From: a phage
DNA: 64,000 nt
Sequence record: PX880102.1
Strand: one strand, 5' to 3'
This document shows positions 46,957 to 64,000 of this stretch, in pieces. Positions within the stretch are counted from its first letter, which is position 1. Each line of letters starts with the position of its first letter. The notes beneath the pieces are model-generated. The model worked only from the letters and a program-made list of their open reading frames with translations, was not told the origin of the DNA and did not search any database. A program made the translations under genes and the position numbers.

Positions 46957-47171
46957 TAATAAGTTTCCTTCCAGTAAGTTGTGCCATCTTCAGTAATTTC
47001 ACGAAACACACCATAAATTGGTTGTTTATCACCAACCTTTTCATACACATAAACCGAAGTCAAGTGAGTAAACTTAACAGTATGTTCCTTTTGAACTACT
47101 ACCAAATCTGGATCGAATAATACATCTTCAAATTCGTCATTAGTGCAGTTCTGAACAATTTTACGTTTCAT
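46956..47171 (-). CDS. hypothetical protein (71 aa; possibly the T4 cef equivalent)
   Basis: ORF track. Confidence 0.45.
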
Positions 47172-47184
47172 TACAATTTCCTCA

Positions 47185-47466: not shown

Positions 47467-47480
47467 GTTGTTTTCTGTAT

Positions 47481-47519
47481 CAGTAGTTGATATTGATATA
47501 GTACCATAATCAACTACTG
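47481..47519 (-). promoter_or_regulatory. variant early-promoter region carrying an 11 bp perfect inverted repeat around the -10
   Basis: cagtagttgat (47481-47491) and atcaactactg (47509-47519) flank GGTACTATAT. Confidence 0.4.
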
Positions 47520-47551
47520 ATGTATATAGTTTTATGAAAAAATTTTAAACT

Positions 47552-48040: not shown

Positions 48041-48116
48041 AGTTATCTCTCACTTGTTAAAAAGATTTTATACTCCACAGGACCATTATACTCTGGTCCC
48101 AAGAGTTTGTAAACTA

Positions 48117-48659
48117 TTAATTCAAAATAGCTACCACTGCACTACGAGGTACTACACTAAAATCACCCGCATGAACAACGTTCAGAAGTTCAACACCATC
48201 TTCAATCCACTGGTCTGTTACCCAACCACAGACCGAAATAAATGGGGTCTTGATAGCTACAGCACGAGTTAGAAGGTCAGTAGGATCGCATTCTTGGAAG
48301 AGGATAAGCTCTGCTTCAAAGACTATAGTTTTAATTACTTCATCATTATCTAAGCGTTGTGCTCGAATCACGTAAGCTTTATTCTTATCATGCCAATTAC
48401 TTTTTGAAAAACTTTTAACCACAAACTCGCCTTCACCCAAAACACTGGTCAATGCTTTATAACCCAAACTTAGTTCAGTAGTTTTAATTTCAGTTTCAAC
48501 CAGTTTGTAGGTTTTGCCAATTTCGATGGTCCGAGCAGTCATAAAAGTTTCCTTAATTTCTAATGGTTTAACAAGAGTGCCGTACATGCTTGCTATATCC
48601 ATATCAAATATTTTATCTATAGGATTTGGGGTGTATTCAGGATTATAATTAAATTTCAT
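48117..48659 (-). CDS. MotB-paralogous hypothetical protein (180 aa)
   Basis: C-terminal VTDQWIEDGVELLNVV resembles ITDQWVEDGVKLYNVV in 47552..48040. Confidence 0.5.
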   Translation of the reverse strand: MKFNYNPEYTPNPIDKIFDMDIASMYGTLVKPLEIKETFMTARTIEIGKTYKLVETEIKTTELSLGYKALTSVLGEGEFVVKSFSKSNWHDKNKAYVIRAQRLDNDEVIKTIVFEAELILFQECDPTDLLTRAVAIKTPFISVCGWVTDQWIEDGVELLNVVHAGDFSVVPRSAVVAILN

Positions 48660-48661: not shown

Positions 48662-49165
48662 TTATCTCATTTCAATAAAATCTACAAGTTCAGCATGGGA
48701 TTTGCGGAACATTACTTGATGCCCGCCAATGATAACTTGGTCATCTGGCACTTCGTATACAGCAAGATAAAATCCTTTAGAAGATAATTCTTCACGCTCT
48801 TCTCGTGTGAACCATCTCATCATATCATATTCACTAGCGAAAGCAAAATGATACAATGCAATAAACCATCCTGGAATATGATATTCTACGCCTACATATT
48901 CTTCTTTCTCAAATTTAGTATTAATTGCTATATTAGCATTTTTAACTAATAATTTGTCTTCGCGTGGAAGAGGAATTCTTTTGTTATCATTACTATGATG
49001 CATAAAATTAGGTCTATCATAACCTACGTGTAATAACCACTCTTCGCTCCATGAATCTATTATACTCCTGTATGGCGTTATTTGAACACAAAGATTTCGA
49101 CGTATTGTTATAGCATCTTCACAATTAAGAATACTAAAAGATGATTCAACACGATAAATTTTCAT
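48662..49165 (-). CDS. hypothetical protein (167 aa from MKIYRV)
   Basis: ORF track 48662..49204 trimmed; upstream codons are promoter leader. Confidence 0.5.
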   Translation of the reverse strand: MKIYRVESSFSILNCEDAITIRRNLCVQITPYRSIIDSWSEEWLLHVGYDRPNFMHHSNDNKRIPLPREDKLLVKNANIAINTKFEKEEYVGVEYHIPGWFIALYHFAFASEYDMMRWFTREEREELSSKGFYLAVYEVPDDQVIIGGHQVMFRKSHAELVDFIEMR

Positions 49166-49189
49166 TTTATTATCCTCAGTAGCTATGGT

Positions 49190-49225
49190 GTTATAGTACC
49201 ACAACTAACCGAGGAAGTAAACAAC
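49190..49225 (-). promoter_or_regulatory. T4-type early promoter
   Basis: GTTTAC (49217-49222 rc), 18 nt, TACTAT. Confidence 0.5.
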
Positions 49226-49228
49226 TTT

Positions 49229-49912
49229 TTATCGTTTGGTTGGAAGAGATAGAGGATCGCACTCTTCCTCTGACGGAGCATCTTCAAGACCCATAGCATA
49301 TCGCAAAGCATACTTCATCATCAGGATGTCTTTCGCACAATCATGAATAGAATCATGCGCAACGAATCCGTCTAAAGTTCCCTTTGGAAGAGGACATGTG
49401 GTCATATCACGAACAAGCAGAAGTGCTTCAATTCTGGTACGAATATCACGCTGATTCCAGAATTTACATGGTTCTAACTTAAATGTATCAAGCTCATTCT
49501 CAGAAACGCCGTTAAAACGTTGAATATCGCGAATGAGATCAACTAAAATTGGAAAATCAAACGACATTCCACGGCACCAGCCTTGAGATTTCCAAGGATC
49601 GATGTTATGTGCATTGATGTAATCATTAAATTTTGCAATACCATCGATAGTGCTTACATCTTCATCCGATGGTGCAATATTTTTTCGAGCTTCAGGAGAT
49701 TGATTTTTCCACCATTCGATAGTGCTTTTAGTAAAAAGACGATGTCCTTTTTGGCTTTTTAAATCAAACTTGATTTTAATGCCGCGTGAAACTAATTCAT
49801 CAAATGTTTCAACTACTTCTGGATTAGGGTCAAAGGCAATAACAGCCAAATCAATAACAGCTGCCTTTTCACCGCTTCCCATTGTTTCAAAATCTATAAT
49901 AAAATCAAACAT
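49229..49912 (-). CDS. dexA: exonuclease A, DEDD-family 3'-5' exonuclease (227 aa)
   Basis: 227 aa; N-terminal DFETMG acidic motif. Confidence 0.85.
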   Translation of the reverse strand: MFDFIIDFETMGSGEKAAVIDLAVIAFDPNPEVVETFDELVSRGIKIKFDLKSQKGHRLFTKSTIEWWKNQSPEARKNIAPSDEDVSTIDGIAKFNDYINAHNIDPWKSQGWCRGMSFDFPILVDLIRDIQRFNGVSENELDTFKLEPCKFWNQRDIRTRIEALLLVRDMTTCPLPKGTLDGFVAHDSIHDCAKDILMMKYALRYAMGLEDAPSEEECDPLSLPTKR

Positions 49913-50187
49913 TAAATTTTCCTCGCTAAATCGCGAATTTGACCTACAGTATAATCTTGGATATAAACTTTATTAATGGGCTCATCAATAAATTTTGCCA
50001 TAGATTCAATATCTTTTTGTATCTCTTCAAGACTGTATACTATCTTTAAAGCTTTTTCGCGAATAGTAACATTATCAGGTCCTGGATTTTCTTGAATGAC
50101 AGCTTTAACATTTGTCATAAGAGATTTAAACTGCTGCAAACTTAATTCAATCATTAATAACCGCCTTATAAAGATGGCTAATTTCAC
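49912..50187 (-). CDS. hypothetical protein (91 aa)
   Basis: ORF track; paralogous pattern with neighbours. Confidence 0.45.
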   Translation of the reverse strand: MKLAIFIRRLLMIELSLQQFKSLMTNVKAVIQENPGPDNVTIREKALKIVYSLEEIQKDIESMAKFIDEPINKVYIQDYTVGQIRDLARKI

Positions 50188-50407
50188 CTAAAACATAATC
50201 ACTGATTGTAACAGTTTTCACTTCACCGCAAAAGAATTCTAATGCAATCAAATCTCGTTCAATTTCTTCCAATTGAAGCATTAACTTGCCTGATTCAATT
50301 TTCACGTTTTTGCGATTTTTACTATAAGCTATTTCATAAATTTCGCTCACTTTATCTTGAAGCAGATAAAACTGGTCTTTAGTTATTTCCACGAATAGCT
50401 TCCTCAA
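50147..50407 (-). CDS. hypothetical protein (86 aa)
   Basis: ORF track. Confidence 0.45.
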   Translation of the reverse strand: MRKLFVEITKDQFYLLQDKVSEIYEIAYSKNRKNVKIESGKLMLQLEEIERDLIALEFFCGEVKTVTISDYVLGEISHLYKAVIND

Positions 50408-50639
50408 ATTTAATCAGCAGCTTACAGACACTTTCATCTAGCGTAATTACCGTGTCTGTATTACTGTGATATGATTGTTTTTCAATTCGTTTAATTGCTA
50501 GTATAGTATCACTTATAAGATTAAGCTTATAAAGGAGCTCAGCTCCTGTTACCATAACACTGAGGTTATCTTGCTTATCAGTATGCTTCTTTATACCATC
50601 TATTAGACGATTTAAATATTTTGAATTGATGTTAATCAT
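50379..50639 (-). CDS. hypothetical protein (86 aa)
   Basis: ORF track. Confidence 0.45.
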   Translation of the reverse strand: MININSKYLNRLIDGIKKHTDKQDNLSVMVTGAELLYKLNLISDTILAIKRIEKQSYHSNTDTVITLDESVCKLLIKFEEAIRGNN

Positions 50640-50645
50640 ATATCC

Positions 50646-51965
50646 TCACACATAAAACACATCATAACGACCACGAGTGACACCAACATAAAGAAGCTGC
50701 TGAGCCAATTCAGCATCTGCATAATGAATACAAGGCGTATAGATGAAAGCACGGTCTACAGACATGCCCTGAGCTTTATGGAATGTTGATGCAGGAAGTG
50801 CTTTCACTTTACTAAACTGTGATTTAGCATCCCAAAAATCACTCCACGGAGCTTTTCCACCTTTATTCCAATTTTTATACGTTTCTGCCGTTTTACCTAA
50901 AAATAAGTTAAACTTATACAGCTCTTCATCAGATGAAATTATTTTAATCTTTTCACGATAATATTCATCATCGCCGTAAGTTTCTACTGTTAAATCCCAA
51001 TGACGAATTAGATATTCTCCAGAAACACCACGAGCTTTAACAAATGTTGATGTATACTCTGCTTCTATAATACGAACTAATTGTCCATTATTAAAAATAA
51101 TTTCTGACACAGGCTTTCCATCAATTTTATATGTTTTAATTAATGGTTCCTGCATTACAATAATTTCACCAACGATAAAATCTTTATCAGTTTCAAAAAT
51201 CTTTTTGCGAATAATGCTATTTAACTTGTCGACAGATTTATTCGTAAATGCCATTACGCGATTTTCAAACAAATCATCTAATGATTTTACGATTGAAAAA
51301 TAATTTACCATAAAATCGCGTAAAGCGGTATCACCAGTAAATCCACGTACTCCGTGCCCGTCAACAACTTTATCATAAATCCACTTACCGTTGCGAACAT
51401 CAGTAGCTACATCAATAATAGGAGCATTACTGCGTTTAACTTCAGTGAGTTCACACTGATAAAAATCTTTATGCGTAAAGAATGGACTGATATAAGCAGT
51501 GTTTTCTCCTGGGTCAACAGGTCTAATTTGCTTATTATCGCCTATTCCAATTATAGTACACCACGGCGGGATAGTTGAAAGCAGAATTTTAAATAGCTTT
51601 CTATCATACATTGACACTTCGTCGCAGATTAATACTCTGCATTTAGCTAAATCCGGTACTTCTTTTTGTTCAAAAAGAACGTTTTCTTCATATGTTACCG
51701 GGTTAATTTTGAGAATACTGTGAATAGTACTCGCTTCTTTCCCTGACAGTTTAGAAAGAATCTTTTTAGCTGCATGTGTAGGAGCTGCCAAAATGATACC
51801 AGTTTCGCCCGTAGATATTAAAGCTTCAATGATGAACTTAGTAAGAGTAGTCTTACCAGTACCAGCAGGTCCATTAATAGTTACATGATGTTTCTTTTCT
51901 TTAATAGCCCTCATAACGATGTTAAAGGCATTTTTTTGACCTTCGGTCAAATCATCAAATGTCAT
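50646..51965 (-). CDS. dda: Dda DNA helicase, SF1 (439 aa)
   Basis: Walker A GPAGTGKTT; 439 aa. Confidence 0.9.
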   Translation of the reverse strand: MTFDDLTEGQKNAFNIVMRAIKEKKHHVTINGPAGTGKTTLTKFIIEALISTGETGIILAAPTHAAKKILSKLSGKEASTIHSILKINPVTYEENVLFEQKEVPDLAKCRVLICDEVSMYDRKLFKILLSTIPPWCTIIGIGDNKQIRPVDPGENTAYISPFFTHKDFYQCELTEVKRSNAPIIDVATDVRNGKWIYDKVVDGHGVRGFTGDTALRDFMVNYFSIVKSLDDLFENRVMAFTNKSVDKLNSIIRKKIFETDKDFIVGEIIVMQEPLIKTYKIDGKPVSEIIFNNGQLVRIIEAEYTSTFVKARGVSGEYLIRHWDLTVETYGDDEYYREKIKIISSDEELYKFNLFLGKTAETYKNWNKGGKAPWSDFWDAKSQFSKVKALPASTFHKAQGMSVDRAFIYTPCIHYADAELAQQLLYVGVTRGRYDVFYV

Positions 51966-52273
51966 CGTAAATTCCCTGCAATTGGTATACTAACAATACG
52001 CCCAGTATCTAAAATTCGCCGATATAATCTTTGTGTGTCTACATCAGGCTTAACGTGTTTAACTTCTATTTTATTAAACCAAAACTTGCGTGGAGTTTCA
52101 ACTAATCTTGGAATTCCCATACCTAAAGCTAGTCGATACTGCTCTTTAAGAGTGGTAAATACTCTATCAGCAATCTCCCTTTCAAAAAATACAGCAGGAC
52201 GATGTTCATCAAGAGGAACAGGCACCGCAAATCCATCTTTATCTCTATACACTATCGCATATACATAAACCAT
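51962..52273 (-). CDS. hypothetical protein (103 aa)
   Basis: ORF track; ATGA overlap with dda. Confidence 0.5.
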   Translation of the reverse strand: MVYVYAIVYRDKDGFAVPVPLDEHRPAVFFEREIADRVFTTLKEQYRLALGMGIPRLVETPRKFWFNKIEVKHVKPDVDTQRLYRRILDTGRIVSIPIAGNLR

Positions 52274-52274
52274 A

Positions 52275-53030
52275 TTATCCTCGGATAAGTTTAAAAATTG
52301 AACAATTCAGCGGGTATCCTCTTTTCAGTTTAAGTTTATCAATAAAAGACAAGTTTTGATACCGCTCTACACCTTGAATAATTTTATCACACATATCATA
52401 TTGCATTTCTGCTTCTGACAACTTTTTCACAATTTTCCAATCCGAGCCTTTAAGAAGAACGTTCAATTTAACAACTTCAGCGCCTTCTGCTATGCGAGAA
52501 CCATCAATACGAGCTTTAAGTGCTATAATCGTTAGCTTAACGTCAGAAGTTTGTTTTGATTTAGAAAGCTGAGAAATGTGCTCAATTCGGTTTTCACGTT
52601 TTTTCTGTATAGCTTTAATTTGATTATAAGTCTTTTTGATTTTAGCCCATTTCTTTTCATCTAAATTTAATTTATGAACTTTTTTCGCAGATGAACGACC
52701 AATTCGCAAAGCAAATAAATCACGCTTTTCAATCAACTCTTCTAAAGTATAATCAGAACGAAATGTATTATACTTTTTCTTTACTGCAATAACGTTCCCT
52801 TTAATGTATCCAACGTTATTATCAAAACGTTCTAATGATAATTTCTCTCCTTCAATACGATTATCAAAAGGTTCTCCTGAATAGGCACAAACTTTTTGAT
52901 CTAAAATGTTCTTAATGTAATTGAAGTCTAAGTTAAAATCTTTAGAACGTCTTTTTGCAGATGCCTGAGTGTGCTCTAAACGACGTTTAATTTTACGAAT
53001 TTGATTATTAGACATATTATGCAGTTTCAT
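52275..53030 (-). CDS. hypothetical basic protein (251 aa; possibly the T4 Srd equivalent)
   Basis: ORF track; early promoter upstream; position between dda and modA. Confidence 0.5.
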   Translation of the reverse strand: MKLHNMSNNQIRKIKRRLEHTQASAKRRSKDFNLDFNYIKNILDQKVCAYSGEPFDNRIEGEKLSLERFDNNVGYIKGNVIAVKKKYNTFRSDYTLEELIEKRDLFALRIGRSSAKKVHKLNLDEKKWAKIKKTYNQIKAIQKKRENRIEHISQLSKSKQTSDVKLTIIALKARIDGSRIAEGAEVVKLNVLLKGSDWKIVKKLSEAEMQYDMCDKIIQGVERYQNLSFIDKLKLKRGYPLNCSIFKLIRG

Positions 53031-53062
53031 ATTTTTCTCACATCTTACGGACGGTTGACTAC

Positions 53063-53097
53063 TATACTATAACATTTTTACCTTAGCTTGTAAACAA
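53063..53097 (-). promoter_or_regulatory. T4-type early promoter
   Basis: GTTTAC (53090-53095 rc), 18 nt, TATAGT. Confidence 0.5.
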
Positions 53098-53152
53098 CTT
53101 TATGCAAAAATGCTTTAAAAATTTCATGGTATAATGAATCTAAGTCCTTCCA

Positions 53153-53755
53153 TTATAGATTAAATCCTTCAAAATCAAGAGTATAGATAGTGTATGTTGA
53201 ATACTTTTTATACTCATATCTATCTGCAATTCTAAATACACTTCCAGCTGGTATCATTACTTCTTGTTCATCTGAAACTAATTCCATATTACGATAACGA
53301 TGGCTATCCGGAAACTTAAAGTTTGGATTGTATTCTTTACAGCGTAGAGCTTTTATAGCATACTCCTGGAAATTGAATACCATAGGAGCTTTGAATTCAA
53401 AAATAACCTGTGTGTTATACTCTAAACCAGAAGCAAAATGTAGAGCTATATTTTTATCATATGAAGCTGATACGACTTTATCAAATGTAATAATATCAAT
53501 TCCTTGATTTAACACCTGCTTAGTCTCAGCTGGAACACCTCTCCAAAGAGGTTTATCGTTTGGAACCAAACGAGATTTGATTATTTCATTTAACCAAGTA
53601 TGGTCATCTGGTTTGTTGGTAATACAATGAATTAAAAGTTCAATTTCAGATAAATTAAACCCTTCAGAAAGTAATTCTTCACGAATAGAAGCACGCACCG
53701 ATGCATCCATTGATTTTATTTTAAAATCTTTTAGTTGCATTACTGAGTATTTCAT
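53153..53755 (-). CDS. modA: ADP-ribosyltransferase ModA (200 aa)
   Basis: 200 aa; paralog of adjacent gene; Arg/Ser/Glu-type ART motif pattern (LWRGV...). Confidence 0.75.
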   Translation of the reverse strand: MKYSVMQLKDFKIKSMDASVRASIREELLSEGFNLSEIELLIHCITNKPDDHTWLNEIIKSRLVPNDKPLWRGVPAETKQVLNQGIDIITFDKVVSASYDKNIALHFASGLEYNTQVIFEFKAPMVFNFQEYAIKALRCKEYNPNFKFPDSHRYRNMELVSDEQEVMIPAGSVFRIADRYEYKKYSTYTIYTLDFEGFNL

Positions 53756-54375
53756 TCAACTACCTCAATATCATAAACTTTAAATGTTCCAAATGAATCG
53801 TGTAATTTTTCTTTTGAAATAGAAGTTATTCTATACTTTCCAATTGGAATCATCCATTCTTGTTCACGCACAATCATCATTAAGTTATCAGTACGCTCTG
53901 AATCTAACCCATCAGTATCTTCATATGTATACTTAAACTCAGTATTAGGAGAAGAAAGTATAATATCGCTGATATGGTCAGAGTAATTAAAAGCTTTATC
54001 AGTTTTTAAGCGAAGTATTGTTTCAGTGAAATATTCAGCATAAGAAAAAGAACACGCTGTATGCAAACTAGTAGTAAATGAATCTACCCTGTTCGTTGAA
54101 AACACTTCTCCAACTTGTAAATCTTTAATGAGTTCTTTTGTCGATTTTGATATACCACGATATAATTGATAAGGCGATTTAGTTAAATGCTTTTTAATGA
54201 TTTTATTCAACTGTCTGTGAAGAGCTTCATTCTTTTTGGCTTCCATACATTGCCAAAGAATTGACTGTTCAAAGTCAGTAAATTTTTCACAGACCTTTTT
54301 ATACATATCATATTGAAAATCAACGCTTTCGGCTTTTATAGATAACTGTTCAACATCTGCAAGATTAATAATCAT
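53752..54375 (-). CDS. modB: ADP-ribosyltransferase ModB (207 aa)
   Basis: 207 aa; LYRGIS motif; ATGA overlap with modA. Confidence 0.75.
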   Translation of the reverse strand: MIINLADVEQLSIKAESVDFQYDMYKKVCEKFTDFEQSILWQCMEAKKNEALHRQLNKIIKKHLTKSPYQLYRGISKSTKELIKDLQVGEVFSTNRVDSFTTSLHTACSFSYAEYFTETILRLKTDKAFNYSDHISDIILSSPNTEFKYTYEDTDGLDSERTDNLMMIVREQEWMIPIGKYRITSISKEKLHDSFGTFKVYDIEVVE

Positions 54376-54399
54376 GATAGCCTCCGTATACTTCAGAAG

Positions 54400-54433
54400 C
54401 TATCATATCATCGTTAGAAAGGAAAGTAAACAA
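54400..54433 (-). promoter_or_regulatory. T4-type early promoter upstream of modB
   Basis: GTTTAC (54426-54431 rc), 18 nt, TATGAT. Confidence 0.45.
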
Positions 54434-54442
54434 CTTTTTGAA

Positions 54443-54625
54443 TTATTTTGCCCAGGGAGCCCAAGGCGGAGGGTCAAGATGGTATGAAGCTAGTTCTTCT
54501 AGAAGAGCATCTGGGGCTTCAATTCCATAATTCTGTAATACTATACGGTACTCTTTCTTATAATCACTAGAATCATTCTGGATATTCGTAGAATGATTAT
54601 CTTCTAACATCTCAAATAAATCCAT
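54443..54625 (-). CDS. hypothetical acidic protein (60 aa)
   Basis: ORF track. Confidence 0.4.
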   Translation of the reverse strand: MDLFEMLEDNHSTNIQNDSSDYKKEYRIVLQNYGIEAPDALLEELASYHLDPPPWAPWAK

Positions 54626-54633
54626 ACTAATTC

Positions 54634-55104
54634 CTAGCGATAAAAACCAAATTGACGATTAGCTTCAATAATCTTTCTTTCTTCTTCGGACATTCTCCAG
54701 CGTAGTCCAACATCAAAATGAGCCCAGACCATCTTAACAAATGCATTTATATCCTTAATATCTTCAATAATGAATGTTTTACTTTTAGAAGATTGACTCG
54801 CTAATTTAACTTTATCGTCTTCAAACAGGTCAAAAAGACTATATTCATGAGCTCTTTTATAGCCTTTAATAGTTAAAGCTTCGGAAGAAGAAAACGGCGA
54901 ATCAGTATTCTGCAAAATATCTTCAGTATGCTTTATAATTAGAATAACATTTTCTGGATATTTTCTTTCTTTTATATCTTTAATTAAAATATCCGGATTT
55001 TCTGCTAAAGGAATAATTAATGAGCACTTTTTATCAAGTGTATTTACTGATTTACCTTCTTTAGACATAAATTCTATTGAATAATGTTTTGCTACTTCAA
55101 TCAT
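54634..55104 (-). CDS. hypothetical protein (156 aa)
   Basis: ORF track. Confidence 0.5.
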
Positions 55105-55257
55105 GTGATTTCCTTTTGCCTACTAATGGACCGTCAGGAATTTTATTTTCCTGAATGTATTTCTCATTTTCTTCCATCATTTTACTGCCAATTTTAAGAA
55201 GCAAATCCATTGCTTCATTTGCTTTAGCCTTGGCCTCTTCCAGCGTCATATCTTTGT

Positions 55258-55461
55258 TCATGATTTATCACCATAGATGTCTCTCATCAATTTAAGCGCT
55301 GAGCGTTCTAATTTCTTTTCTTTCTCAGCACTAATCATTGATTTCATCCATTCTTCTGATTCGTTCTGCATTTCTTTATTTGCTTGTTCAACCCAACCAT
55401 CATCAATATACATTGAGTTTGGTCTATTAAACCATTCAAGAATCTTCTTGAGAGCTTTCAT
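55258..55461 (-). CDS. hypothetical protein (67 aa)
   Basis: ORF track. Confidence 0.45.
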
Positions 55462-55933
55462 TTATTTTACCTAAAACAATAGTATGGACACCGTCAAATT
55501 TATGAATTTTTAGCAAATTAGGATTTAAATTATTCCATAAAGAGGTAATAAAATATGATAGCGCACTTTCGTCCGTAATTATAAATTTATTTCCCTTATC
55601 AATTTTCCAGTCATATATTGAATCATATGAATAGAAGGATAACGGTTTATTGTTATAGTATGCTTCAGCAACATCAATATAGTTAGATTTAGTAAATGCT
55701 TGAATTGCCATAAATGGAGAATTTTGTACAGTTTCAATAATTCCGATCTTTTTAAGTTTTATTTCAACATCTTCTGGAACTGGCATTGAAATAAAATCTT
55801 CTACTAGATACATGTTATTGTCATATCTTTTATCAATCATTACTGCTACGGTAATTGGAACATCCTTGACAAACGCCATACTAATACTATTGATAGACAT
55901 TTCAAACAAAATTGCTTCCATAATTTTCCTCAA
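55436..55933 (-). CDS. hypothetical protein (165 aa)
   Basis: ORF track. Confidence 0.5.
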
Positions 55934-56271
55934 TCACAAGATGTAGATGAACAACTAGAATCACAAGAACTTCCACATGAATCACCTGCCCATACATGAA
56001 CAGGAACATTAGTATCATATGAATCAGAACTAGACTGTGTATTCTGTGCATTAGATGATGTAGTAGGTGTTGACCAGCGCCAAGGATTTTTATAATATTC
56101 TTGGGCTTCTTCATAAGTCATAGTAACTGCTTCTACTGTTCCATCTCCCATATAAACATATTCAACTACAGTTAAAGGAAGATAGTCATTTGAAATAGGA
56201 ACTACACCTTCTCCGGGAGTTGTAGAGAAAAAATCTGTAAAGAAATTTTTAAACCAATTAAAGATAAACAT
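55930..56271 (-). CDS. hypothetical protein with C-terminal Cys/Ser-rich tail (113 aa)
   Basis: ORF track; tail [17 protein letters not shown]. Confidence 0.5.
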
Positions 56272-56477
56272 TACAAAAAGCCTCTTTTGAATTCGACTTG
56301 TTTATCGCCATAATCATATCGAATCTCTGCGTTAAATTCAACAGAACCATCTGCGTACATCATAAATGAATGCACAACAACTTCTGTAGACCATGGTTGC
56401 AATTCATATTTCTTCATTACATGCCGTGAAATGATAATATCTAAATCTTCATTTGGTTTAATCCAACGATTTAACAT
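56271..56477 (-). CDS. hypothetical protein (68 aa)
   Basis: ORF track; early promoter upstream. Confidence 0.5.
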   Translation of the reverse strand: MLNRWIKPNEDLDIIISRHVMKKYELQPWSTEVVVHSFMMYADGSVEFNAEIRYDYGDKQVEFKRGFL

Positions 56478-56499
56478 AGTGCTCTCCTCTATAAGATAA

Positions 56500-56535
56500 T
56501 TCTATTATACCATACTCATTTTGGAAAGTAAACCG
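56500..56535 (-). promoter_or_regulatory. T4-type early promoter
   Basis: GTTTAC (56528-56533 rc), 18 nt, TATAAT. Confidence 0.5.
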
Positions 56536-56542
56536 GTAAAAT

Positions 56543-56567
56543 GAAAAAAGGACTCCCGAAGGAGTCC
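56543..56567 (-). terminator. intrinsic terminator downstream of soc
   Basis: hairpin identical to the one at 2962..2986 plus U6. Confidence 0.7.
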
Positions 56568-56575
56568 TTGAATTA

Positions 56576-56812
56576 TTAACCACCTATTTCTGTGGGTGTA
56601 AACATTGCAGCATTCTTAGTTTTCCAGTCAGCTGCATCAGAAACTACAGTAGAATATGCCGCCTTTTCAGAAGGAAAGGTCTGATAATGAGAATCTGCAA
56701 TACGATGCTCGTTAGAATAAATTTCAAACGGAACAGAAACTTCCATACCTTTAACTTCTTTGCCTTCACCTGCTGGATGAGTAAAGGTCTTGATGTTAAC
56801 GAAACCACCCAT
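56576..56812 (-). CDS. soc: small outer capsid protein Soc (78 aa)
   Basis: VNIKTF...HYQTFPSEKAAYSTV matches T4 Soc; TATAAATA late promoter upstream. Confidence 0.8.
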   Translation of the reverse strand: MGGFVNIKTFTHPAGEGKEVKGMEVSVPFEIYSNEHRIADSHYQTFPSEKAAYSTVVSDAADWKTKNAAMFTPTEIGG

Positions 56813-56842
56813 AATAAACTCCTTTATTGTTTAATTACAGGT

Positions 56843-56850
56843 GTATTTAT
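56843..56850 (-). promoter_or_regulatory. late promoter TATAAATA for soc
   Basis: exact TATAAATA on minus strand about 30 nt upstream of the soc ATG. Confidence 0.6.
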
Positions 56851-56993
56851 AACTTACAATTTAGCGGCTTTCCAGAGTTGTTCAATAATCTCTTGGTCTA
56901 TTTCTTTAGTTATTTCATTACGTAATAAAGCAGTAAGGGCTTTCGCCCTTTTCTTATTCAACTTTTTGAGTTGGCGTTTATTTAAACGGGACA

Positions 56994-57512
56994 TTAATAA
57001 CCTCGGTCTTGACGTGCGAAATTTTCAGCATTTTTCAGATAATAAAGTTTAAAGATTTCTTCCGCTGTAAGACCAAGACCCTGGAACATATTCAGAACGA
57101 AATGAAGAATATCAATCATTTCAAATTTAATTTCTAACTGGTCTTGTGGAGACAAATCAGTAATCAGAGTTTCACGACGTTCACCATGCTGCGACTTCCA
57201 AGGTTTCCATACAGCAGATGCGTCTTTTTCACCATTACTCATACCACCAAGAGAAGTCAGAAGTTCACGGAATTCATCGTCAATATAATCTTTCTGATTA
57301 CGCAACCAATCAACAACTTCACCGGCAGTAGCTAAGTCATCAGGATGACGATTATATTCAGGTTTATCTTTAGCTAAACGAACCTGCAAAGATTTCTGCA
57401 TATCAAGCATTACCTGCAGCGGGTCTTTTTCATCGCCGAGAATATCCCAATATTCATTTTGAGCTTTATCAGCGCCTTCAATCAGTTGTGAACATTCGTT
57501 AAAGTAAGCCAT
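56994..57512 (-). CDS. 56: gp56 dCTPase/dUTPase, MazG-like (172 aa from MAYFNE)
   Basis: ORF track 56994..57605 trimmed; MotA-box middle promoter upstream. Confidence 0.8.
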   Translation of the reverse strand: MAYFNECSQLIEGADKAQNEYWDILGDEKDPLQVMLDMQKSLQVRLAKDKPEYNRHPDDLATAGEVVDWLRNQKDYIDDEFRELLTSLGGMSNGEKDASAVWKPWKSQHGERRETLITDLSPQDQLEIKFEMIDILHFVLNMFQGLGLTAEEIFKLYYLKNAENFARQDRGY

Positions 57513-57546
57513 TATTTTTCCTTTCAATTCATGGGTTAGTAGATTA

Positions 57547-57572
57547 ATTATACAATAAATATATAAAGCAAT
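57547..57572 (-). promoter_or_regulatory. MotA-box middle promoter for gene 56
   Basis: ATTGCTTTA box (57564-57572 rc), 11 nt, TATAAT (57547-57552 rc). Confidence 0.5.
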
Positions 57573-57583
57573 AAGGAGGACAT

Positions 57584-57784
57584 ATGGTACAAAAATTAAT
57601 GGCACTTGTTAATGCCATCAAAGGTAATAAGAAACGTATAGCTTTTACTATTTCTGCTATGGTAGGAATTTTACTCTGGAACTTTATTTTATCACCAATT
57701 GCAATTGCGCATGGTGTTAATATTCCAGTAGTTACTCTTGATACATTCGTAGATCTAGCATTTGCTTTAGTTGGGTTGATTTAA
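57584..57784 (+). CDS. possible small membrane protein (66 aa), only plus-strand ORF in this minus block
   Basis: AAGGAGGA 4-5 nt before ATG; two hydrophobic segments; lies in the 56-61 intergenic space; could be chance. Confidence 0.35.
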   Translation: MVQKLMALVNAIKGNKKRIAFTISAMVGILLWNFILSPIAIAHGVNIPVVTLDTFVDLAFALVGLI

Positions 57785-58809
57785 ATCTTAGCATATTTAG
57801 ATAGCCGCATTTTAGCCATCAACCCCTGGGCAATATTATTTTTCATATATTCCATAATTTGTTCAGGGGTTGCACCTTCCTTTCTAATCATATCATTAAC
57901 ATCTTTAGATTTCCAGGGAGATTTATCCCAAAACATAACCCTTTCTCCTGCATCAACTAATTTAGTCATTCGTTTGATAGTGTCAGGGTGACGAGGTTCA
58001 TTATCTAAAACCCACACTCGTCTATCTTTAAATGGAACAATTTCTAGGTCTAATTGACCACCCGTAATAGCTATACCATTTTCAATAAAAAGTGAATCTA
58101 TAGGTCCTTCTAGAACATATACATCGCCATCTTTAACTCGTTCGACTCCATAGATTTTTGTTGCCTCAGGATAAGCTTTAATGGTGATATATTTTTGAGG
58201 AGCATTTTTCTTTAATGCACGCCCTTGAAACGACTCGGCTTTTCCGTTAGCATTATAAATTGGAATAACAAGACGAGGCTCAGGTATTTCCTTTTTATAT
58301 GTTCCCGGTGCTATGCTATTAACCAATTTAGGCCATTCGGTTGTAAACCAAAGATATTTCCATTTATCCTTTGGAATACAACGAGCTTTTACGTATTTTA
58401 TAATTGGATGGTCTTCCGCCAGTTTATCTAATCTAACACATGACGGAAGAGATTTAATTATTTTCTTCTCAGGTTGTTTAGGAAGTTCTTTAGGTTTTTC
58501 TACTGGACGACTTTTACCTTTTTCTTTTCTTATTTCAAAGATATACTCACGATATAAATCAGGTTCAAACTCCTTTAAATATATTCCGATTGGTGCGTGA
58601 TAGTTACAGTTATAACAATGAATATTTCCTTCATTATTATCACCATAATACCATCCACGAGCTTTATTCTGGTCGGTTTTTGAATCTCCACAAACGGGGC
58701 ATCTAAACCGCAATTTAAAAGTTGAACTATTATTTACTTGTGTGAATTTAGGTAAATGAGCCAATGCACGATACGCAAACTCATTATCAATCCAAGGTAT
58801 TGATGACAT
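57781..58809 (-). CDS. 61: gp61 DNA primase (342 aa)
   Basis: N-terminal zinc ribbon CPVCGDSK...CYNC; TOPRIM; 342 aa. Confidence 0.9.
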   Translation of the reverse strand: MSSIPWIDNEFAYRALAHLPKFTQVNNSSTFKLRFRCPVCGDSKTDQNKARGWYYGDNNEGNIHCYNCNYHAPIGIYLKEFEPDLYREYIFEIRKEKGKSRPVEKPKELPKQPEKKIIKSLPSCVRLDKLAEDHPIIKYVKARCIPKDKWKYLWFTTEWPKLVNSIAPGTYKKEIPEPRLVIPIYNANGKAESFQGRALKKNAPQKYITIKAYPEATKIYGVERVKDGDVYVLEGPIDSLFIENGIAITGGQLDLEIVPFKDRRVWVLDNEPRHPDTIKRMTKLVDAGERVMFWDKSPWKSKDVNDMIRKEGATPEQIMEYMKNNIAQGLMAKMRLSKYAKI

Positions 58810-58811
58810 TT

Positions 58812-58976
58812 TTACTCTTCTTTTTCTTTAGATTCCTCTTTTTTCTTTTTAGGAATCTGTTCAGGACCTTTATTTACTACAGCACCTGATGTTGTTCCAG
58901 TAGAGATATTTTCAGGATTACCACCTGAATCTCCAGCAACCATATCTTCTTTAATAAATTCTTTATATGTTTTCAT
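58812..58976 (-). CDS. small Lys/Glu-rich protein (54 aa)
   Basis: manual translation; TAATATG coupling. Confidence 0.35.
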   Translation of the reverse strand: MKTYKEFIKEDMVAGDSGGNPENISTGTTSGAVVNKGPEQIPKKKKEESKEKEE

Positions 58977-59020
58977 ATTAACCTCTATTCATAAAAGCAT
59001 TAAAAATTTGGTCATCAATC
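58974..59020 (-). repeat. direct repeat copy A (about 47 bp, roughly 92 percent identical to copy B)
   Basis: catattaacctctattcataaaagcattaaaaatttggtcatcaatcga. Confidence 0.7.
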
Positions 59021-59334
59021 GATGGAATAGCAACTTTTTCTGCATCATTTAGCAAATCATTAATTTCATCAGATAGCATAACACATGTACCTTTATTTCC
59101 TGTAATTGTTACTGCACAATTACGAACGTTTTCTTTATTAAATTTTAGGTTAATATTTTCGTAATGAAAATCCTTTAATGCTGAATATATTTTTAAAATA
59201 AAATTGTCTTTTACTACAATAAACCCAACCTCACTATTAAAACGTGGTTCATGGAAACTGTAATAAACCTTTTCATCTATAAAATCGTATGAAATTTTTT
59301 CCATTTTTAAATATGAAAATTCAGAACTATACAT
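58978..59334 (-). CDS. hypothetical protein, single-domain paralog of the adjacent 213 aa gene (118 aa)
   Basis: shares the VKDN core and an identical C-terminal IDDQIFNAFMN(R/K)G tail with 59336..59977. Confidence 0.55.
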   Translation of the reverse strand: MYSSEFSYLKMEKISYDFIDEKVYYSFHEPRFNSEVGFIVVKDNFILKIYSALKDFHYENINLKFNKENVRNCAVTITGNKGTCVMLSDEINDLLNDAEKVAIPSIDDQIFNAFMNRG

Positions 59335-59378
59335 ATTAACCTTTATTCATAAAAGCATTAAAAATTTGATCGTCAATA
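59332..59378 (-). repeat. direct repeat copy B
   Basis: catattaacctttattcataaaagcattaaaaatttgatcgtcaataga. Confidence 0.7.
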
Positions 59379-59977
59379 GAAACTTTTACTTTAGGATGTT
59401 CTTCAAACGGTAATTCATATCCACATATTACAATTTTGTGATCGATACCAAAATACACAGAAGCAATATGATTAATATTATTTTCAGTGAAATCTAAATC
59501 AACATCAATATCTTTTTGACTAACGCTCAAAGGATAATTAATACGAATAATTCGATTATCTTTAACAAAGATTCCACCGACATACTCTGTGTTGCGTTTA
59601 AAGTTTACACGTTTCCTAAATGAAAAATATTCAGGTTCTTTATGAGCCCGACTCATAGGACACAATGAGTAGCTAGAATAAGAGATGTCAAATCCTACAC
59701 CTTCAATATGAGCCAACGTGTCATGATTAAACCAATTATAATCATATGCCAAATCCATTATATTGTAATATGTGAAAGGCACCGGATTAACATCATATAT
59801 TGTACCTTTAAAATCTGCCCAGGCAACGATTTCATTATCTTTAACAATTACAAAAATTGTGCCAATAAGATATCCACGGTTATTTTCATCAGGCGTTATA
59901 TTATAACATTGCGCATCAGGAAATTTACCGTATTTAAACGGTGGATTTTTGTGCATATAATAAATCATATTATTCAC
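59336..59977 (-). CDS. hypothetical two-repeat protein (213 aa) at the T4 61.2 position
   Basis: two internal VKDN-core repeats; tail shared with 58978..59334. Confidence 0.55.
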   Translation of the reverse strand: MNNMIYYMHKNPPFKYGKFPDAQCYNITPDENNRGYLIGTIFVIVKDNEIVAWADFKGTIYDVNPVPFTYYNIMDLAYDYNWFNHDTLAHIEGVGFDISYSSYSLCPMSRAHKEPEYFSFRKRVNFKRNTEYVGGIFVKDNRIIRINYPLSVSQKDIDVDLDFTENNINHIASVYFGIDHKIVICGYELPFEEHPKVKVSIDDQIFNAFMNKG

Positions 59978-60263
59978 CTGTGATTTCGGTTACGATATCT
60001 TTGTTATCAAAATTAGGGTCACAATACAAAACATAGTTATACTGCATCACACCACCTGATTTAAGCTGTTTTTGTACTTCAACTTTCATATTGGGACGAT
60101 CACGCTCAACGATATTCATAATATCCGCTTCAATTTGAGTTTCAACTTCAGTCTGATCTGCAGTCATAGACCATTCACACAAATCTTTATCATAACCTGC
60201 CATAGCAGGCTGAGCAGCACAAGAAGCTAAAGCAAAAATTGCAGCAAAGATAAATTTTTTCAT
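59970..60263 (-). CDS. sp: probable Spackle periplasmic superinfection-exclusion protein (97 aa)
   Basis: 97 aa; cleavable signal peptide ...AQPAMA|G; position between 61 and 41. Confidence 0.6.
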   Translation of the reverse strand: MKKFIFAAIFALASCAAQPAMAGYDKDLCEWSMTADQTEVETQIEADIMNIVERDRPNMKVEVQKQLKSGGVMQYNYVLYCDPNFDNKDIVTEITGE

Positions 60264-60323
60264 GATAATCTCCTCAGTAGTTTATGTTTATATAGTATCT
60301 CAATTTCCAACAAAAGTAAACAG

Positions 60324-60635
60324 CTATTTTAAAACTTCTGCATAATCACATGTTACAAACTGTTTCTCTAACTTGACGATTTTACGAAAATACCTTTTAC
60401 ACTGACGAATCTGTCGCTTCGTAGGACGTACAGCAAACTTAATAAATTCCACTCGACCAAATGGAGGACTTTCTTCTGCTGGAATATCTAGCACCAATTC
60501 CCACGTATCTGCAATAAGTGCTTTGAATTGCGTATTTTTCCTGACGTTATACGGAGTAGGTTTAAATAAAACAATATGCATATTATCCTCGGCAATCCAC
60601 TTCGCACACTTTCTTGTCATCAATGAAAGCTTCAA
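60324..60635 (-). CDS. hypothetical basic protein (103 aa)
   Basis: ORF track. Confidence 0.5.
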   Translation of the reverse strand: MKLSLMTRKCAKWIAEDNMHIVLFKPTPYNVRKNTQFKALIADTWELVLDIPAEESPPFGRVEFIKFAVRPTKRQIRQCKRYFRKIVKLEKQFVTCDYAEVLK

Positions 60636-60765
60636 CTAATGCTTTATTAACTTCAGCATATTGAGTAGTAGCCCATTGAACGTCATCTTTCATCATTGTG
60701 GTTTCTTTAGTAAACATGCTTTCATTCTTAAACCACCCCATAAAAACTACCTTTACCAATTCCAT
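60583..60765 (-). CDS. dmd: probable Dmd antitoxin (60 aa)
   Basis: 60 aa; immediately downstream of gene 41 with own early promoter, as in T4. Confidence 0.65.
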   Translation of the reverse strand: MELVKVVFMGWFKNESMFTKETTMMKDDVQWATTQYAEVNKALVEAFIDDKKVCEVDCRG

Positions 60766-60791
60766 AACAATCTCCTCATTTAACCAACAAG

Positions 60792-60826
60792 ACTACTATA
60801 CCATAGTCTTGTCAGCTTGTAAACTA
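60792..60826 (-). promoter_or_regulatory. T4-type early promoter upstream of dmd
   Basis: GTTTAC (60819-60824 rc) overlapping gene 41 stop, 18 nt, TATAGT. Confidence 0.5.
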
Positions 60827-62251
60827 AAATTTTAATTCATTTGCCAAAGCATCTAACTGAGCTCGAGCTGATTCGTTTCTTTGATAGCGATTCTGTTCAG
60901 CCTGAATCTGCTGTGAACCTGCTACTTCACTCACTTCGGTTGGAGTAGAATCTTGTTCAATTTCTACCCATTTTTGATTTCCTTTTTGAACACCCATCAA
61001 AAACTTATTCCACTTATTCTTATCACCATATCGTGATTTGATTTGCTTAATGAGTTGTTGTTCAGCAGCTGCTAGCTCCTCGGTTTCAATGACCGCAAGC
61101 ATAAAATCAGCTGTTGCTGGAAGACCAGCAGATTCTGCAATATCGCTCATGTTAACATCGGAAGAGTCCCAAGCTTGTTTACCGACCTGTGCTGCAGTCC
61201 AAAGAACAGTTTCTGTTTCAACAGCCAGAGCACGTAATTCCTCTGCAATAGCTTTAACAGTTGTGTAACTATTTTCTGAATAAACTCTAATGCGGCAAGA
61301 TTTACAAATACCTAGATAGTCGACAATAATGATTGTTGGAACAAAATTCTTTTTGAGCTTCAATTCATTCAAGAGAGACCTGAATGTGTTAGCGTCTGCT
61401 CCACCAGTAGGATATTGCTTAACGATTAAACGACCGAGAGTAGATTTCTCACGCCATTTTTCCATTTTTCCTTTATACTCGGCATAAGAAATATGTCCAT
61501 CATCAATATCGTCAAGAGAAACATCGAGCATGTTAGCATCAATACGTTTAGCACAGACTTCTTCTGCCATTTCCATGGAGATATAAAGAACGTTATGACC
61601 AAGCTGCAAATAATCTGCTGCTAATGAACAAAGTCCTAATGATTTACCAACGTTAACGCCAGCCATTAAAACGTTCAGTGTTCCAGTCTCAGCTCCGCCT
61701 TTAGTAATTTTGTTTAGAATTCTGAGTTTAAATGGAACCTTACGAGCTTTATTCATATAAGATAGCCAACGCGCTTCATAGTCATCCATCCAATCATGAC
61801 CAACGTAGCTATCAAATGAAATTGATAATGCTTGGCGCATGATGTCAGGAATAGCACCTACATCTGGCATTTTCTTATTTCGTTTTTCCGGAGGAAGCTC
61901 AGCATTAGTTTGAATTTCGATTATTTTAGACGTAGCATTAAACATCGCCCTTTGCTGAACATATTTTTCTGTTTCTTTTACTAACCAGCTGTGGTCTTCT
62001 GGAGAATCAGTCAGTTTTGAAATAAGTGTTTTTACACCAGAATATTCTGTTTCAGTAAATGAACTATTTTCTAATGCAACATTTAACGCATTAATAGATG
62101 GAACGCTATGATACTCGTTGACATGAGATTTAATTAATTTGAATGTATTTTTAGCTGGACCACTTTCAAAATATTCTGAATCCATATATGGCCAAACTTT
62201 TGAAAAATAAGCTTGATCAAATATAAGATGAGAAAGAATAATTTCTACCAC
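60824..62251 (-). CDS. 41: gp41 replicative DNA helicase, DnaB-like (475 aa), GTG start
   Basis: MVEIILSHLIFDQ N-terminus; Walker A GVNVGKS; AAGGAG RBS 5 nt before GTG. Confidence 0.95.
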   Translation of the reverse strand: MVEIILSHLIFDQAYFSKVWPYMDSEYFESGPAKNTFKLIKSHVNEYHSVPSINALNVALENSSFTETEYSGVKTLISKLTDSPEDHSWLVKETEKYVQQRAMFNATSKIIEIQTNAELPPEKRNKKMPDVGAIPDIMRQALSISFDSYVGHDWMDDYEARWLSYMNKARKVPFKLRILNKITKGGAETGTLNVLMAGVNVGKSLGLCSLAADYLQLGHNVLYISMEMAEEVCAKRIDANMLDVSLDDIDDGHISYAEYKGKMEKWREKSTLGRLIVKQYPTGGADANTFRSLLNELKLKKNFVPTIIIVDYLGICKSCRIRVYSENSYTTVKAIAEELRALAVETETVLWTAAQVGKQAWDSSDVNMSDIAESAGLPATADFMLAVIETEELAAAEQQLIKQIKSRYGDKNKWNKFLMGVQKGNQKWVEIEQDSTPTEVSEVAGSQQIQAEQNRYQRNESARAQLDALANELKF

Positions 62252-62260
62252 ACTTACTCC

Positions 62261-62617
62261 TTAAAAGAATTTAAATTTTTTCTTTGACCTTTTATTAAAT
62301 GCATCTTGTAGTTGCATTGTAATACATTTTTCTACATGAGGAGCTAACTCAGCTTTTCTTTCTTGGTCAAGAACAGCAAAGTCCATTACAACCTTTCCAT
62401 TAACCCAATCTAATTTTGTTACATACACAATGTGTGTAGAACCATCTTCTAGTTTAATGACAATCTCCTGGATAACATTTTCCATGGCAGATTTAATTAT
62501 CTTAAGAGATTCATTAAAAAGACGTTCTTTTCTTTCTTCTTCCCCCTCCGAAGAGGGGGATTCATCGATAATTTCTAAATCTAAATCATCTTTACTCATT
62601 AAATTCTTCCATATCAC
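62261..62617 (-). CDS. 40: probable gp40 head assembly factor (118 aa)
   Basis: position between uvsX and 41; size. Confidence 0.55.
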   Translation of the reverse strand: MIWKNLMSKDDLDLEIIDESPSSEGEEERKERLFNESLKIIKSAMENVIQEIVIKLEDGSTHIVYVTKLDWVNGKVVMDFAVLDQERKAELAPHVEKCITMQLQDAFNKRSKKKFKFF

Positions 62618-63773
62618 TTAACTGCTCGAGGTCAGTTTCTAAATCAGCTGCTGATTTACTTTTACTTTCTGGGGATTTAAATTTTTCAACCTTTGAGTTA
62701 ATCAATTCATCAACTTCAGCTTCAACAATTTCATTACTATCAATAGCACCTAACTGATAAGCACGTTTAATAGCATCTCGGAATGGTTGATGCTTAAATA
62801 AAGGACCCCAGAATGTAGTGCAGTTAGTATCTTTTGCACGCCAAGATTTTTCTTCGCGAATCATCTCACCGGTTTCTTCGTCAAGAAATTCACGAGCATA
62901 CCAACCATTTTTAGGTTTTACTACAAATCCTAATTCTAGGGCCATATCTAACAATCCAGAATAAGGATCGATACCACCGTCAAATTTAACATCAATAAAG
63001 AATTTACTTTTTTCTTTAACAGTACGAGATTTTTCTACATTTAGAACAAATTGATACCCCTGAAGATCAGAACCATCTTTAATCTGACGCTTACCGATAA
63101 TGAATACAGTATCAGCCGAATACATTACGCCTGTACCACCTGTCATCACGGTTTTACTAAACATTTCAATTGTTTCAATTGTATGGTTAACCGCAACGCA
63201 TGGAATATTTTTAATGCTAAAGTAAGGAGTAACAATACGGAATAATGACTTCAGCGATTTAGCACGAGTCATATCTGCCACAGATTTTTCATTCAAGGCA
63301 TCTTCCGTTTCTTTCTTAGAAGCCATATTACCGATTGAGTCGATGAATACAATAACTTTTTCACCACGCTCAATAGCTTCAAGCTGGTTCACCATATCAA
63401 TTTTCAGCTGTTCAACTGACTGGATTGGCGTATGAATTACTCGTTCCGGGTCAACTCCCATGGATCGCAAATAAGCTGGAGTAATACCAAATTCGCTATC
63501 ATAGAATAGACAAACCGCGTCAGGATATTTGTTCAAATATGCCGCAACCATAGTCAAAGACATATTTGATTTAAAGTGTTTAGAAGGCCCTGCGAAAATA
63601 GTTAAACCAGACTGCATACCGCCATCAATCGCACCAGAAATAGCAATATTAAGCATTGGGATTTTTGTACGGATTACATCCTTTTCATTAAAGAATTTAG
63701 ATGTAGTCAGTTCAGCAGTCATTTTAGAAGTGGAAGCTTTAATCAAACGGGATTTTAAATCTGCAATAGACAT
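62592..63773 (-). CDS. uvsX: UvsX recombinase, RecA-like (393 aa)
   Basis: RecA fold motifs; size; position. Confidence 0.95.
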   Translation of the reverse strand: MSIADLKSRLIKASTSKMTAELTTSKFFNEKDVIRTKIPMLNIAISGAIDGGMQSGLTIFAGPSKHFKSNMSLTMVAAYLNKYPDAVCLFYDSEFGITPAYLRSMGVDPERVIHTPIQSVEQLKIDMVNQLEAIERGEKVIVFIDSIGNMASKKETEDALNEKSVADMTRAKSLKSLFRIVTPYFSIKNIPCVAVNHTIETIEMFSKTVMTGGTGVMYSADTVFIIGKRQIKDGSDLQGYQFVLNVEKSRTVKEKSKFFIDVKFDGGIDPYSGLLDMALELGFVVKPKNGWYAREFLDEETGEMIREEKSWRAKDTNCTTFWGPLFKHQPFRDAIKRAYQLGAIDSNEIVEAEVDELINSKVEKFKSPESKSKSAADLETDLEQLSDMEEFNE

Positions 63774-63850
63774 TCATTTTTTCCATAGGCATCATTATAT
63801 TTTCCTCACTGGTTAAAGATAGAGTAATTATAACACAATAAATTTAGGCA

Positions 63851-64000
63851 TTAATCAACTGCTATTGGATGAATAGCATTAAACTTATGAAATGCTTCTG
63901 ATTTTTCTTTACGCGAAACGCACATGCGAAGAACCTTTAGTGGTTCATCTTCTTCACCCAACGATTTTCGTTTTTCAATATTAGAAGTTTTCCAACGAGC
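63851..64000 (-). CDS. 3' end of a gene upstream of uvsX running off the window (T4 has a glucosyltransferase here)
   Basis: 50 open codons ending at TAA 63851-63853. Confidence 0.4.
   Translation of the reverse strand, partial: ARWKTSNIEKRKSLGEEDEPLKVLRMCVSRKEKSEAFHKFNAIHPIAVD

Follow-up and report, generated by a model that had tools for sequence, protein, structure and literature searches.

A Small Conserved Gene for a Predicted Membrane Protein between Genes 56 and 61 of T4-Like Phages

Organization of the 56-61 interval

The window analyzed here, a 64,000-nucleotide (nt) stretch of phage DNA (record PX880102.1), is a segment of a Tequatrovirus (T4-like) genome. Over positions 57300 to 58000, it is 100% identical to the records of Escherichia phage vB_EcoM-UFV05, UFV06, UFV09, UFV10, and UFV11 and 97 to 99% identical to wV7, AR1, RB32, RB51, and RB68. 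Its identity to UFV09 changes from segment to segment (93.5% over positions 1 to 1360, 96.8% over 41365 to 48235, and 98.5% over 49134 to 64000), which is a mosaic pattern typical of Tequatrovirus recombination. Near the locus described below, the minus strand carries a very basic 46-amino-acid (aa) open reading frame (ORF) at 56854 to 56994, between soc and gene 56, where T4 has the homing endonuclease gene segF; the equivalent ORF in wV7 is labeled a hypothetical protein. Farther to the right on the same strand, two adjacent ORFs of 118 and 213 aa (58978 to 59334 and 59336 to 59977) both resemble 61.2 and share the end SIDDQIFNAFMN[RK]G, which suggests that a segment was duplicated in tandem; only one 61.2 exists in T4.

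Positions 57513 to 57784 make up the entire gap between genes 56 and 61, since position 57513 directly follows the gene 56 start codon (Table 1). A first-pass annotation, made from the sequence without database searches, had singled out in this gap a plus-strand ORF of 66 aa as the sole convincing one within a block of minus-strand genes, preceded by a strong Shine-Dalgarno sequence and overlapping convergently with the gene 61 stop, and all of these observations hold. Every other plus-strand ORF of at least 60 aa between 33 and 64 kb lies inside a larger minus-strand gene, and GGAGG or GGAG stands at the place equivalent to the Shine-Dalgarno sequence in all orthologues examined. The 4-nt overlap of the stops recurs in Mosig-, Karam-, Gelderland-, Dhaka- (WG01), and Marfavirus; in Jiaodavirus, Dhakavirus NC-G, and Gaprivervirus, a GC hairpin lies between the ORF and the primase gene. 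In T6 (NC_054907; positions 2501 to 2701 of the extracted locus), ATT replaces the ATG, and the protein is annotated from Met6 with 61 aa. Plus-strand RNA structure near the start codon of the window ORF was not significant (z of -0.6). An open frame of 66 codons would arise by chance with a P of about 0.011 at the base composition of the window, and the main argument for a real gene is conservation rather than this probability.

The opposite strand of the gap is occupied as well. The MotA-box promoter for gene 56, which the earlier reading had placed on the same DNA, is present there as a pattern, and the equivalent promoter of RB69 has been predicted (Pm:16038; Nolan 2006, PMC1524935). A terminator-like hairpin followed by a T-run is found 160 nt past the gene 61 stop and inside codons 1 to 13 of the ORF, with the hairpin itself covering codons 5 to 13. 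This structure is specific to Tequatrovirus and absent from the Mosig-, Gapriver-, and Karamvirus loci. Read along the minus strand, the order is therefore gene 61, a 3' untranslated region, the terminator, the middle promoter, and gene 56, with the plus-strand gene threaded through these elements.

Table 1. Coordinates of genes and sequence features at the 56-61 interval of the window, with the loci of a second subtype in related phages
Feature	Position	Strand	Remarks
Gene 56 (dCTPase/dUTPase)	56994-57512	-	Left neighbor
MotA-box middle promoter pattern, gene 56	57547-57571	-	TTGCTTTA at 57571-57564, 11-nt spacer, TATAAT at 57552-57547
AATAAATA, putative gp55-type late promoter	57554-57561	+	7/8 match to consensus TATAAATA
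Shine-Dalgarno sequence AAGGAGGA	57573-57580	+	3 nt 5' of ATG
Coding sequence of the 66-aa protein (PHROG 2024)	57584-57784	+	ATG start, 66 codons
Residues 1-18, basic N-terminal segment	57584-57637	+	Net charge +5; predicted cytoplasmic (positive-inside rule)
Terminator-like hairpin and T-run	57586-57621 (hairpin 57621-57596)	-	dG -13.7 kcal/mol, z -3.5
Residues 19-42 (about), single predicted transmembrane helix	57638-57709	+	W32-N33-F34...P38 near outer end
Residues 43-66, tail	57710-57781	+	Predicted periplasmic; HG...P...L(D/E) motif; short hydrophobic/amphipathic helix 52-63
TTAA palindrome, overlapping stops	57781-57784	both	ORF stop TAA, 57782-57784 (+); gene 61 stop, 57781-57783 (-)
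Gene 61 (DNA primase)	57781-58809	-	Right, convergent neighbor
Second-subtype loci	NC-G 1260-1680; WG01 701-901; Marfa 701-901		Extracted-locus coordinates

Family, conservation, and the accessory gene dam

The predicted protein matches PHROG 2024, a family labeled "unknown function," with an E value of 1.5e-31 over residues 2 to 66 against profile positions 1 to 65. Besides this full-length profile match, the window ORF has the position of the family, convergent with gene 61 and divergent from gene 56, and its conserved core, which consists of a K/R cluster, the transmembrane helix, WN[FYL]xxxP, xG, P, and [LMF][DE]. The orthologues RB69ORF029w (RB69) and RB32ORF030w (RB32) belong to the same family and occupy the same opposite-strand position between genes 56 and 61, and we found no difference between them and the window ORF. 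Sequence searches of Pfam, NCBIfam, and the PDB with the window protein gave no relative, and a BFVD fold search returned family members only. A word-indexed protein search recovered close relatives only, and profile and exhaustive searches widened the family within T4-like phages only. Run exhaustively against 1.8 billion representative proteins, the profile gave nine matches, of which the full-length ones have the family motif and a match to PHROG 2024. All phage matches, those of the tblastn searches included, have Enterobacterales hosts.

Conservation in related phages, which the first-pass annotation had proposed as a check on its ORF, proved extensive. The ORF was matched by tblastn in 693 phage records, with coverage of at least 80% in 687 of them, and more subtypes are present in 183 and 107 records. 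About 500 of the 693 have at least 90% protein identity (Tequatrovirus, T4 and T6 included), and 190 fall below 60%. The window protein is 100% identical to RB68_032 and to the wV7 protein, and diverged copies with 28 to 65% identity occur in Mosig-, Gapriver-, Dhaka-, Karam-, Gelderland-, Jiaoda-, and Marfavirus. The frame is kept open at 63 to 69 codons in at least eight genera. At all loci read, the ORF lies beside primase gene 61 on the opposite strand, and gene 56 is on its other side in every one but Marfa. The arrangement in which the ORF is convergent with the primase gene and divergent from gene 56 is found in T4, wV7, and T6 of Tequatrovirus and in JK42, phiC120, and RB69 of Mosigvirus, and identically in Karamvirus, Gelderlandvirus, Jiaodavirus, and Dhakavirus; the unannotated record of Gaprivervirus TH40 has matching flanks by sequence. 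Marfavirus keeps the convergence with the primase gene and has an unnamed hypothetical gene as the left neighbor.

Substitution patterns were compared by the Nei-Gojobori method. For pairs with unsaturated dS, the dN/dS ratios are 0.12 for the window versus T4, 0.10 for the window versus locus L017, 0.16 for JK42 versus C120, and 0.13 for both CkP1 versus Melville and JK42 versus NC-G. One Gaprivervirus pair departs from this pattern, with a ratio of 0.56. Variable sites at codon positions 1, 2, and 3 number 6, 2, and 13 within Tequatrovirus, 22, 6, and 40 within Mosigvirus plus Dhakavirus, and 8, 8, and 30 between Karamvirus and Gelderlandvirus, with a less clear distribution in Gaprivervirus (13, 4, and 10). 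By these comparisons, the ORF is a genuine gene, conserved and kept by purifying selection in no fewer than eight genera of T4-like phages, and the earlier caution that it might be fortuitous did not survive them.

A second, diverged subtype (MG[ST]IFYQIWKL...WNLLVVP...) sits in the same slot of WG01 and Marfa, where it is the sole subtype. Dhakavirus NC-G has both subtypes in tandem behind one CATAAATA, and the first copy is frameshifted.

The gene has been annotated since RB69, as RB69ORF029w, is listed as RB32ORF030w in RB32, and appears as "hypothetical protein" in hundreds of records; the occasional automatic labels "holin" and "putative head morphogenesis protein" are without support. 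The T4 reference NC_000866 gives no annotation for the ORF, which runs from 17738 to 17938 on its plus strand: dam ends at 17625, gene 61 begins at 17935, and no feature is given between them. The ORF is likewise missing from the classic T4 record K03113, and no NCBI protein accession exists for the T4 allele within a collection of 15 billion proteins. De novo gene calling does recover the ORF from a recent T4 assembly (OZ209023, 17724 to 17924). Our literature search found no paper on this gene, which databases list as a hypothetical-protein family and which is overlooked in the T4 reference annotation.

The first-pass annotation had described the ORF as standing where dam should be, on the premise that T4 carries dam, together with gene 69 and oriA, between genes 56 and 61. 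According to NC_000866, dam is indeed there; segF (formerly gene 69) is found between soc and gene 56, and the annotated oriA falls within the gene 56 sequence. Since T4 carries both genes, in the order 56, dam, ORF (plus strand), 61, the ORF does not take the place of dam, and we rejected it as a dam replacement. Instead, an insertion of about 880 bp on the left side of the putative ORF promoter brings in dam, an accessory cassette encoded on the strand opposite the ORF. T4 dam DNA occurs in 184 phage records, compared with about 500 Tequatrovirus records with the ORF (roughly a third), and dam is absent at the locus from T6, wV7, RB32-type phages, and the window. The earlier reading was correct on this last point, as no DPPY motif was found among window ORFs of at least 100 aa and tblastn with T4 Dam gave a best E value of 3.1 in the window. 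A full-genome search for a Dam homolog had also been suggested. Positions 1 to 126 kb of UFV09, which together with the span of the window make up a whole genome, gave a best E value of 1.8 with T4 Dam. UFV09 is 100% identical over the 701-bp query, and because it is 93 to 98% identical to the window elsewhere, for the window's own phage we infer the genome-wide absence of dam from this relative. The missing dam is ordinary accessory-gene variation, unrelated to the ORF.

Putative late promoter and predicted membrane topology

The only recognizable plus-strand signal in the 71-nt gap upstream of the ORF is AATAAATA, with its core ATAAATA at 57555 to 57561 and the motif 22 nt 5' of the ATG; no sigma-70-like plus-strand promoter was found in this gap. 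The T4 late-promoter consensus TATAAATA corresponds to positions -13 to -6, and transcription is predicted to start at about position 57567, giving a 17-nt leader that contains the Shine-Dalgarno sequence. Across the window, ATAAATA occurs 15 times versus 36.6 +/- 6.3 expected from shuffles, a roughly 2.4-fold under-representation that suggests genome-wide counter-selection of spurious late promoters. The early region from 35 to 64 kb has two such sites only, one before soc and one before the ORF. Elsewhere, the same AATAAATA variant is found 18 nt 5' of holin gene t, and the full consensus TATAAATA is found 5' of a 1290-aa tail-fiber gene (presumably gene 34).

The closest parallel in the window is soc, likewise a short gene in the early block with a late-promoter motif and a short leader (a full TATAAATA, 31 nt 5' of its ATG). 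Unlike the ORF, soc is a minus-strand gene, and its product decorates the capsid. They also differ in that late expression is experimentally established for soc, whereas for the window ORF we infer it from the motif. The soc late promoter of RB69 has been predicted as Pl:15279 (Nolan 2006, PMC1524935).

A matching core lies 10 to 24 nt 5' of the ATG in T4 and in Mosig-, Gapriver-, Jiaoda-, Dhaka-, and Marfavirus, among adjacent bases that are unalignable. The motif reads GATAAATA in T4, AATAAATA in Mosigvirus (RB69 included) and WG01, CATAAATA in Gaprivervirus, Jiaodavirus, and NC-G, and a perfect TATAAATA in Marfa; Karam- and Gelderlandvirus have ATTAAATA only. In T4-like phages, conservation of the T at -13 is poor (Nolan et al. 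2006, PMC1524935), and a T4 dRNA-seq report gives a TAAAT core (10.1101/2024.04.04.588121). When T4 is compared with the window, similarity resumes at the motif, immediately to the right of the dam insertion; in NC_000866, ATAAATA begins 28 nt before the ORF start, and a transcript would be predicted to start near position 17722. Other observations count against a late promoter. A hidden Markov model (HMM) scan of RB69 listed 31 late promoters, that of soc included and none before RB69ORF029w (Nolan et al. 2006, PMC1524935, Additional File 5), but RB69 does have AATAAATA 21 nt before this gene (positions 3530 to 3562 of the extracted locus). In addition, the window motif falls within the spacer of the middle promoter that serves gene 56 on the minus strand, which could itself explain some of the local conservation of the motif; the two stand in a different register in T4, Mosigvirus, and Gaprivervirus. 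On this comparative evidence, the ORF is probably expressed late from AATAAATA.

An AlphaFold2 model built on a 20-sequence alignment has helices at residues 2 to 13, 16 to 42, and 52 to 63, with a mean pLDDT of 74. The net charge is +5 before the hydrophobic core and -2 after it, and by the positive-inside rule the N terminus would lie on the cytoplasmic side, with the last 24 or so residues being periplasmic. The first-pass annotation had predicted two transmembrane segments and called for a topology prediction. We find one bilayer-long hydrophobic segment of about 24 residues (approximately 19 to 42), which is the one confident transmembrane helix and falls in the AlphaFold2 helix at 16 to 42, and a second hydrophobic run of 9 to 12 residues that contains or is flanked by Asp/Glu. 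The favored reading is therefore of a protein that crosses the membrane once, N-in/C-out, and ends in a short, conserved periplasmic tail.

A helical hairpin that crosses the membrane twice and leaves both ends in the cytoplasm would account for the high mean hydropathy of residues 47 to 66 in Tequatrovirus (IPVVTLDTFVDLAFALVGLI). We consider this topology decidedly unlikely, as two Asp fall within that stretch, the second run in the Karam-, Gelderland-, and Jiaodavirus orthologues is a charged, amphipathic, LPPIPLEKAIQFIMIGEF-like sequence, the AlphaFold2 helix there has only 12 residues, and the published RB69 prediction gives RB69ORF029w a single transmembrane segment at residues 21 to 41 (Nolan 2006, PMC1524935).

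Conservation within the single-pass protein is uneven. Invariant positions in the 20-sequence alignment are W32, N33, F34, P38, G44, and P48, followed by L/M-D/E, and distant orthologues keep W, N, P38, G44, and P48, with F34 changed to Y or L. These residues are grouped around the outer end of the helix and along the tail, a distribution suggestive of a specific contact on the periplasmic side of the inner membrane.

Proposed function and competing explanations

We favor, with good confidence, a model in which the ORF, a gene conserved among T4-like phages of enterobacteria, specifies a late-expressed inner-membrane microprotein of 66 residues. RNA polymerase carrying gp55 would start at AATAAATA late in infection, and the 17-nt leader with its strong Shine-Dalgarno sequence would direct translation of the ORF. 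The product would then keep its basic N terminus in the cytoplasm, cross the inner membrane with residues 19 to 42 or thereabouts, and expose its last 24 or so residues to the periplasm. Because the WNF..P and HG..P..L-D/E residues are concentrated at the outer face of the inner membrane, it is there that the product would probably bind a larger phage or host envelope protein, and it is this clustering of conserved residues at the outer end that leads us to a microprotein with a larger partner. AcrZ, MgtS, CydX, and KdpF are bacterial membrane microproteins that modulate larger membrane proteins. The ORF protein is like them in its size class, its single transmembrane helix, and its conservation in or near that helix; it differs in having no homology to them, and the comparison is an analogy for how it may work only.

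For such a protein, the timing and inhibition of lysis would be the likeliest late processes, or else some other function at the envelope. A lysis-related role is a speculative guess from timing and location, and we regard it as unlikely. We give little credence to the more far-reaching proposal of a late gene overlooked in T4 and all of its enterobacterial relatives, the microprotein of which would be a missing late-envelope component, such as a modulator of lysis inhibition by holin T and antiholin RI or of a different step facing the periplasm. The ORF protein would share with T and RI the N-in, single-transmembrane, C-out topology, and its putative late promoter is of the type found at gene t (AATAAATA). 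In contrast, it has no sequence similarity to either protein, and T and RI have large periplasmic domains (T, 218 aa) where the ORF protein would have about 24 periplasmic residues.

A few automatic annotations, such as those of OE5505 and KP1079, would make the product itself a holin or pinholin-like lysis protein. It is small, membrane spanning, and apparently late, and distant relatives have weak matches to holin profiles (phrog_11161 holin, E = 0.012; GTA_holin_3TM, E = 0.1). However, these matches are far below threshold and involve hydrophobic stretches only, and the window protein has no holin match in Pfam, NCBIfam, the PDB, or PHROG. It also has one transmembrane segment and lacks the charged, hydrophilic cytoplasmic C-terminal tail that holins typically have, ending instead in ...DLAFALVGLI (hydrophobic, net charge -2), and a T4-type holin T is already encoded at 32227 to 32883. 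We therefore find it very unlikely that this gene encodes a holin.

Alternatively, the main product could be the late plus-strand RNA, acting antisense to primase gene 61 in its late shut-off, with the ORF being secondary. The ORF is convergent with gene 61, and their stops overlap. Since no plus-strand intrinsic terminator was found in positions 57780 to 61000, a late transcript would read antisense through gene 61, and the T4 dRNA-seq report counts 22 antisense transcription start sites in that phage (10.1101/2024.04.04.588121). Selection on the protein sequence stands against this explanation, which we consider highly improbable. Moreover, the GC-rich hairpins that intervene in Jiaodavirus, Dhakavirus NC-G, and Gaprivervirus mean that antisense read-through is not a conserved feature, and given these terminator hairpins in three genera we rejected the idea that the locus serves mainly for a conserved antisense control of gene 61; antisense control of the primase in the window's phage itself is conceivable.

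A fortuitous ORF, in DNA kept for signals on the minus strand (the middle promoter serving gene 56, and the 3' untranslated region of gene 61 with its terminator), would fit the presence of the hairpin and MotA-box promoter in the interval and the fact that the ORF was never called in the T4 reference annotation or classic T4 records, but this explanation is essentially excluded by the sequence comparisons, in that the frame stays open across genera despite the protein divergence, third-position variation dominates with dN/dS ratios of 0.10 to 0.16, the protein is distributed more widely than the Tequatrovirus-specific hairpin, and the conserved residues form a coherent membrane-protein pattern.

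T4 is among the best-annotated phages, yet a gene conserved in at least eight related genera is missing from its reference annotation. T4 omics and knockout studies based on the reference annotation therefore lack the gene as well, and adding it is a small, concrete annotation correction. The locus is also a reminder that dam is an accessory cassette in Tequatrovirus and not a fixed landmark. If the microprotein were the missing late-envelope component considered above, a knockout would show a clear lysis-timing or fitness phenotype. More generally, a small, putatively late membrane protein with a conserved periplasmic motif is a testable candidate for late envelope functions in these phages.
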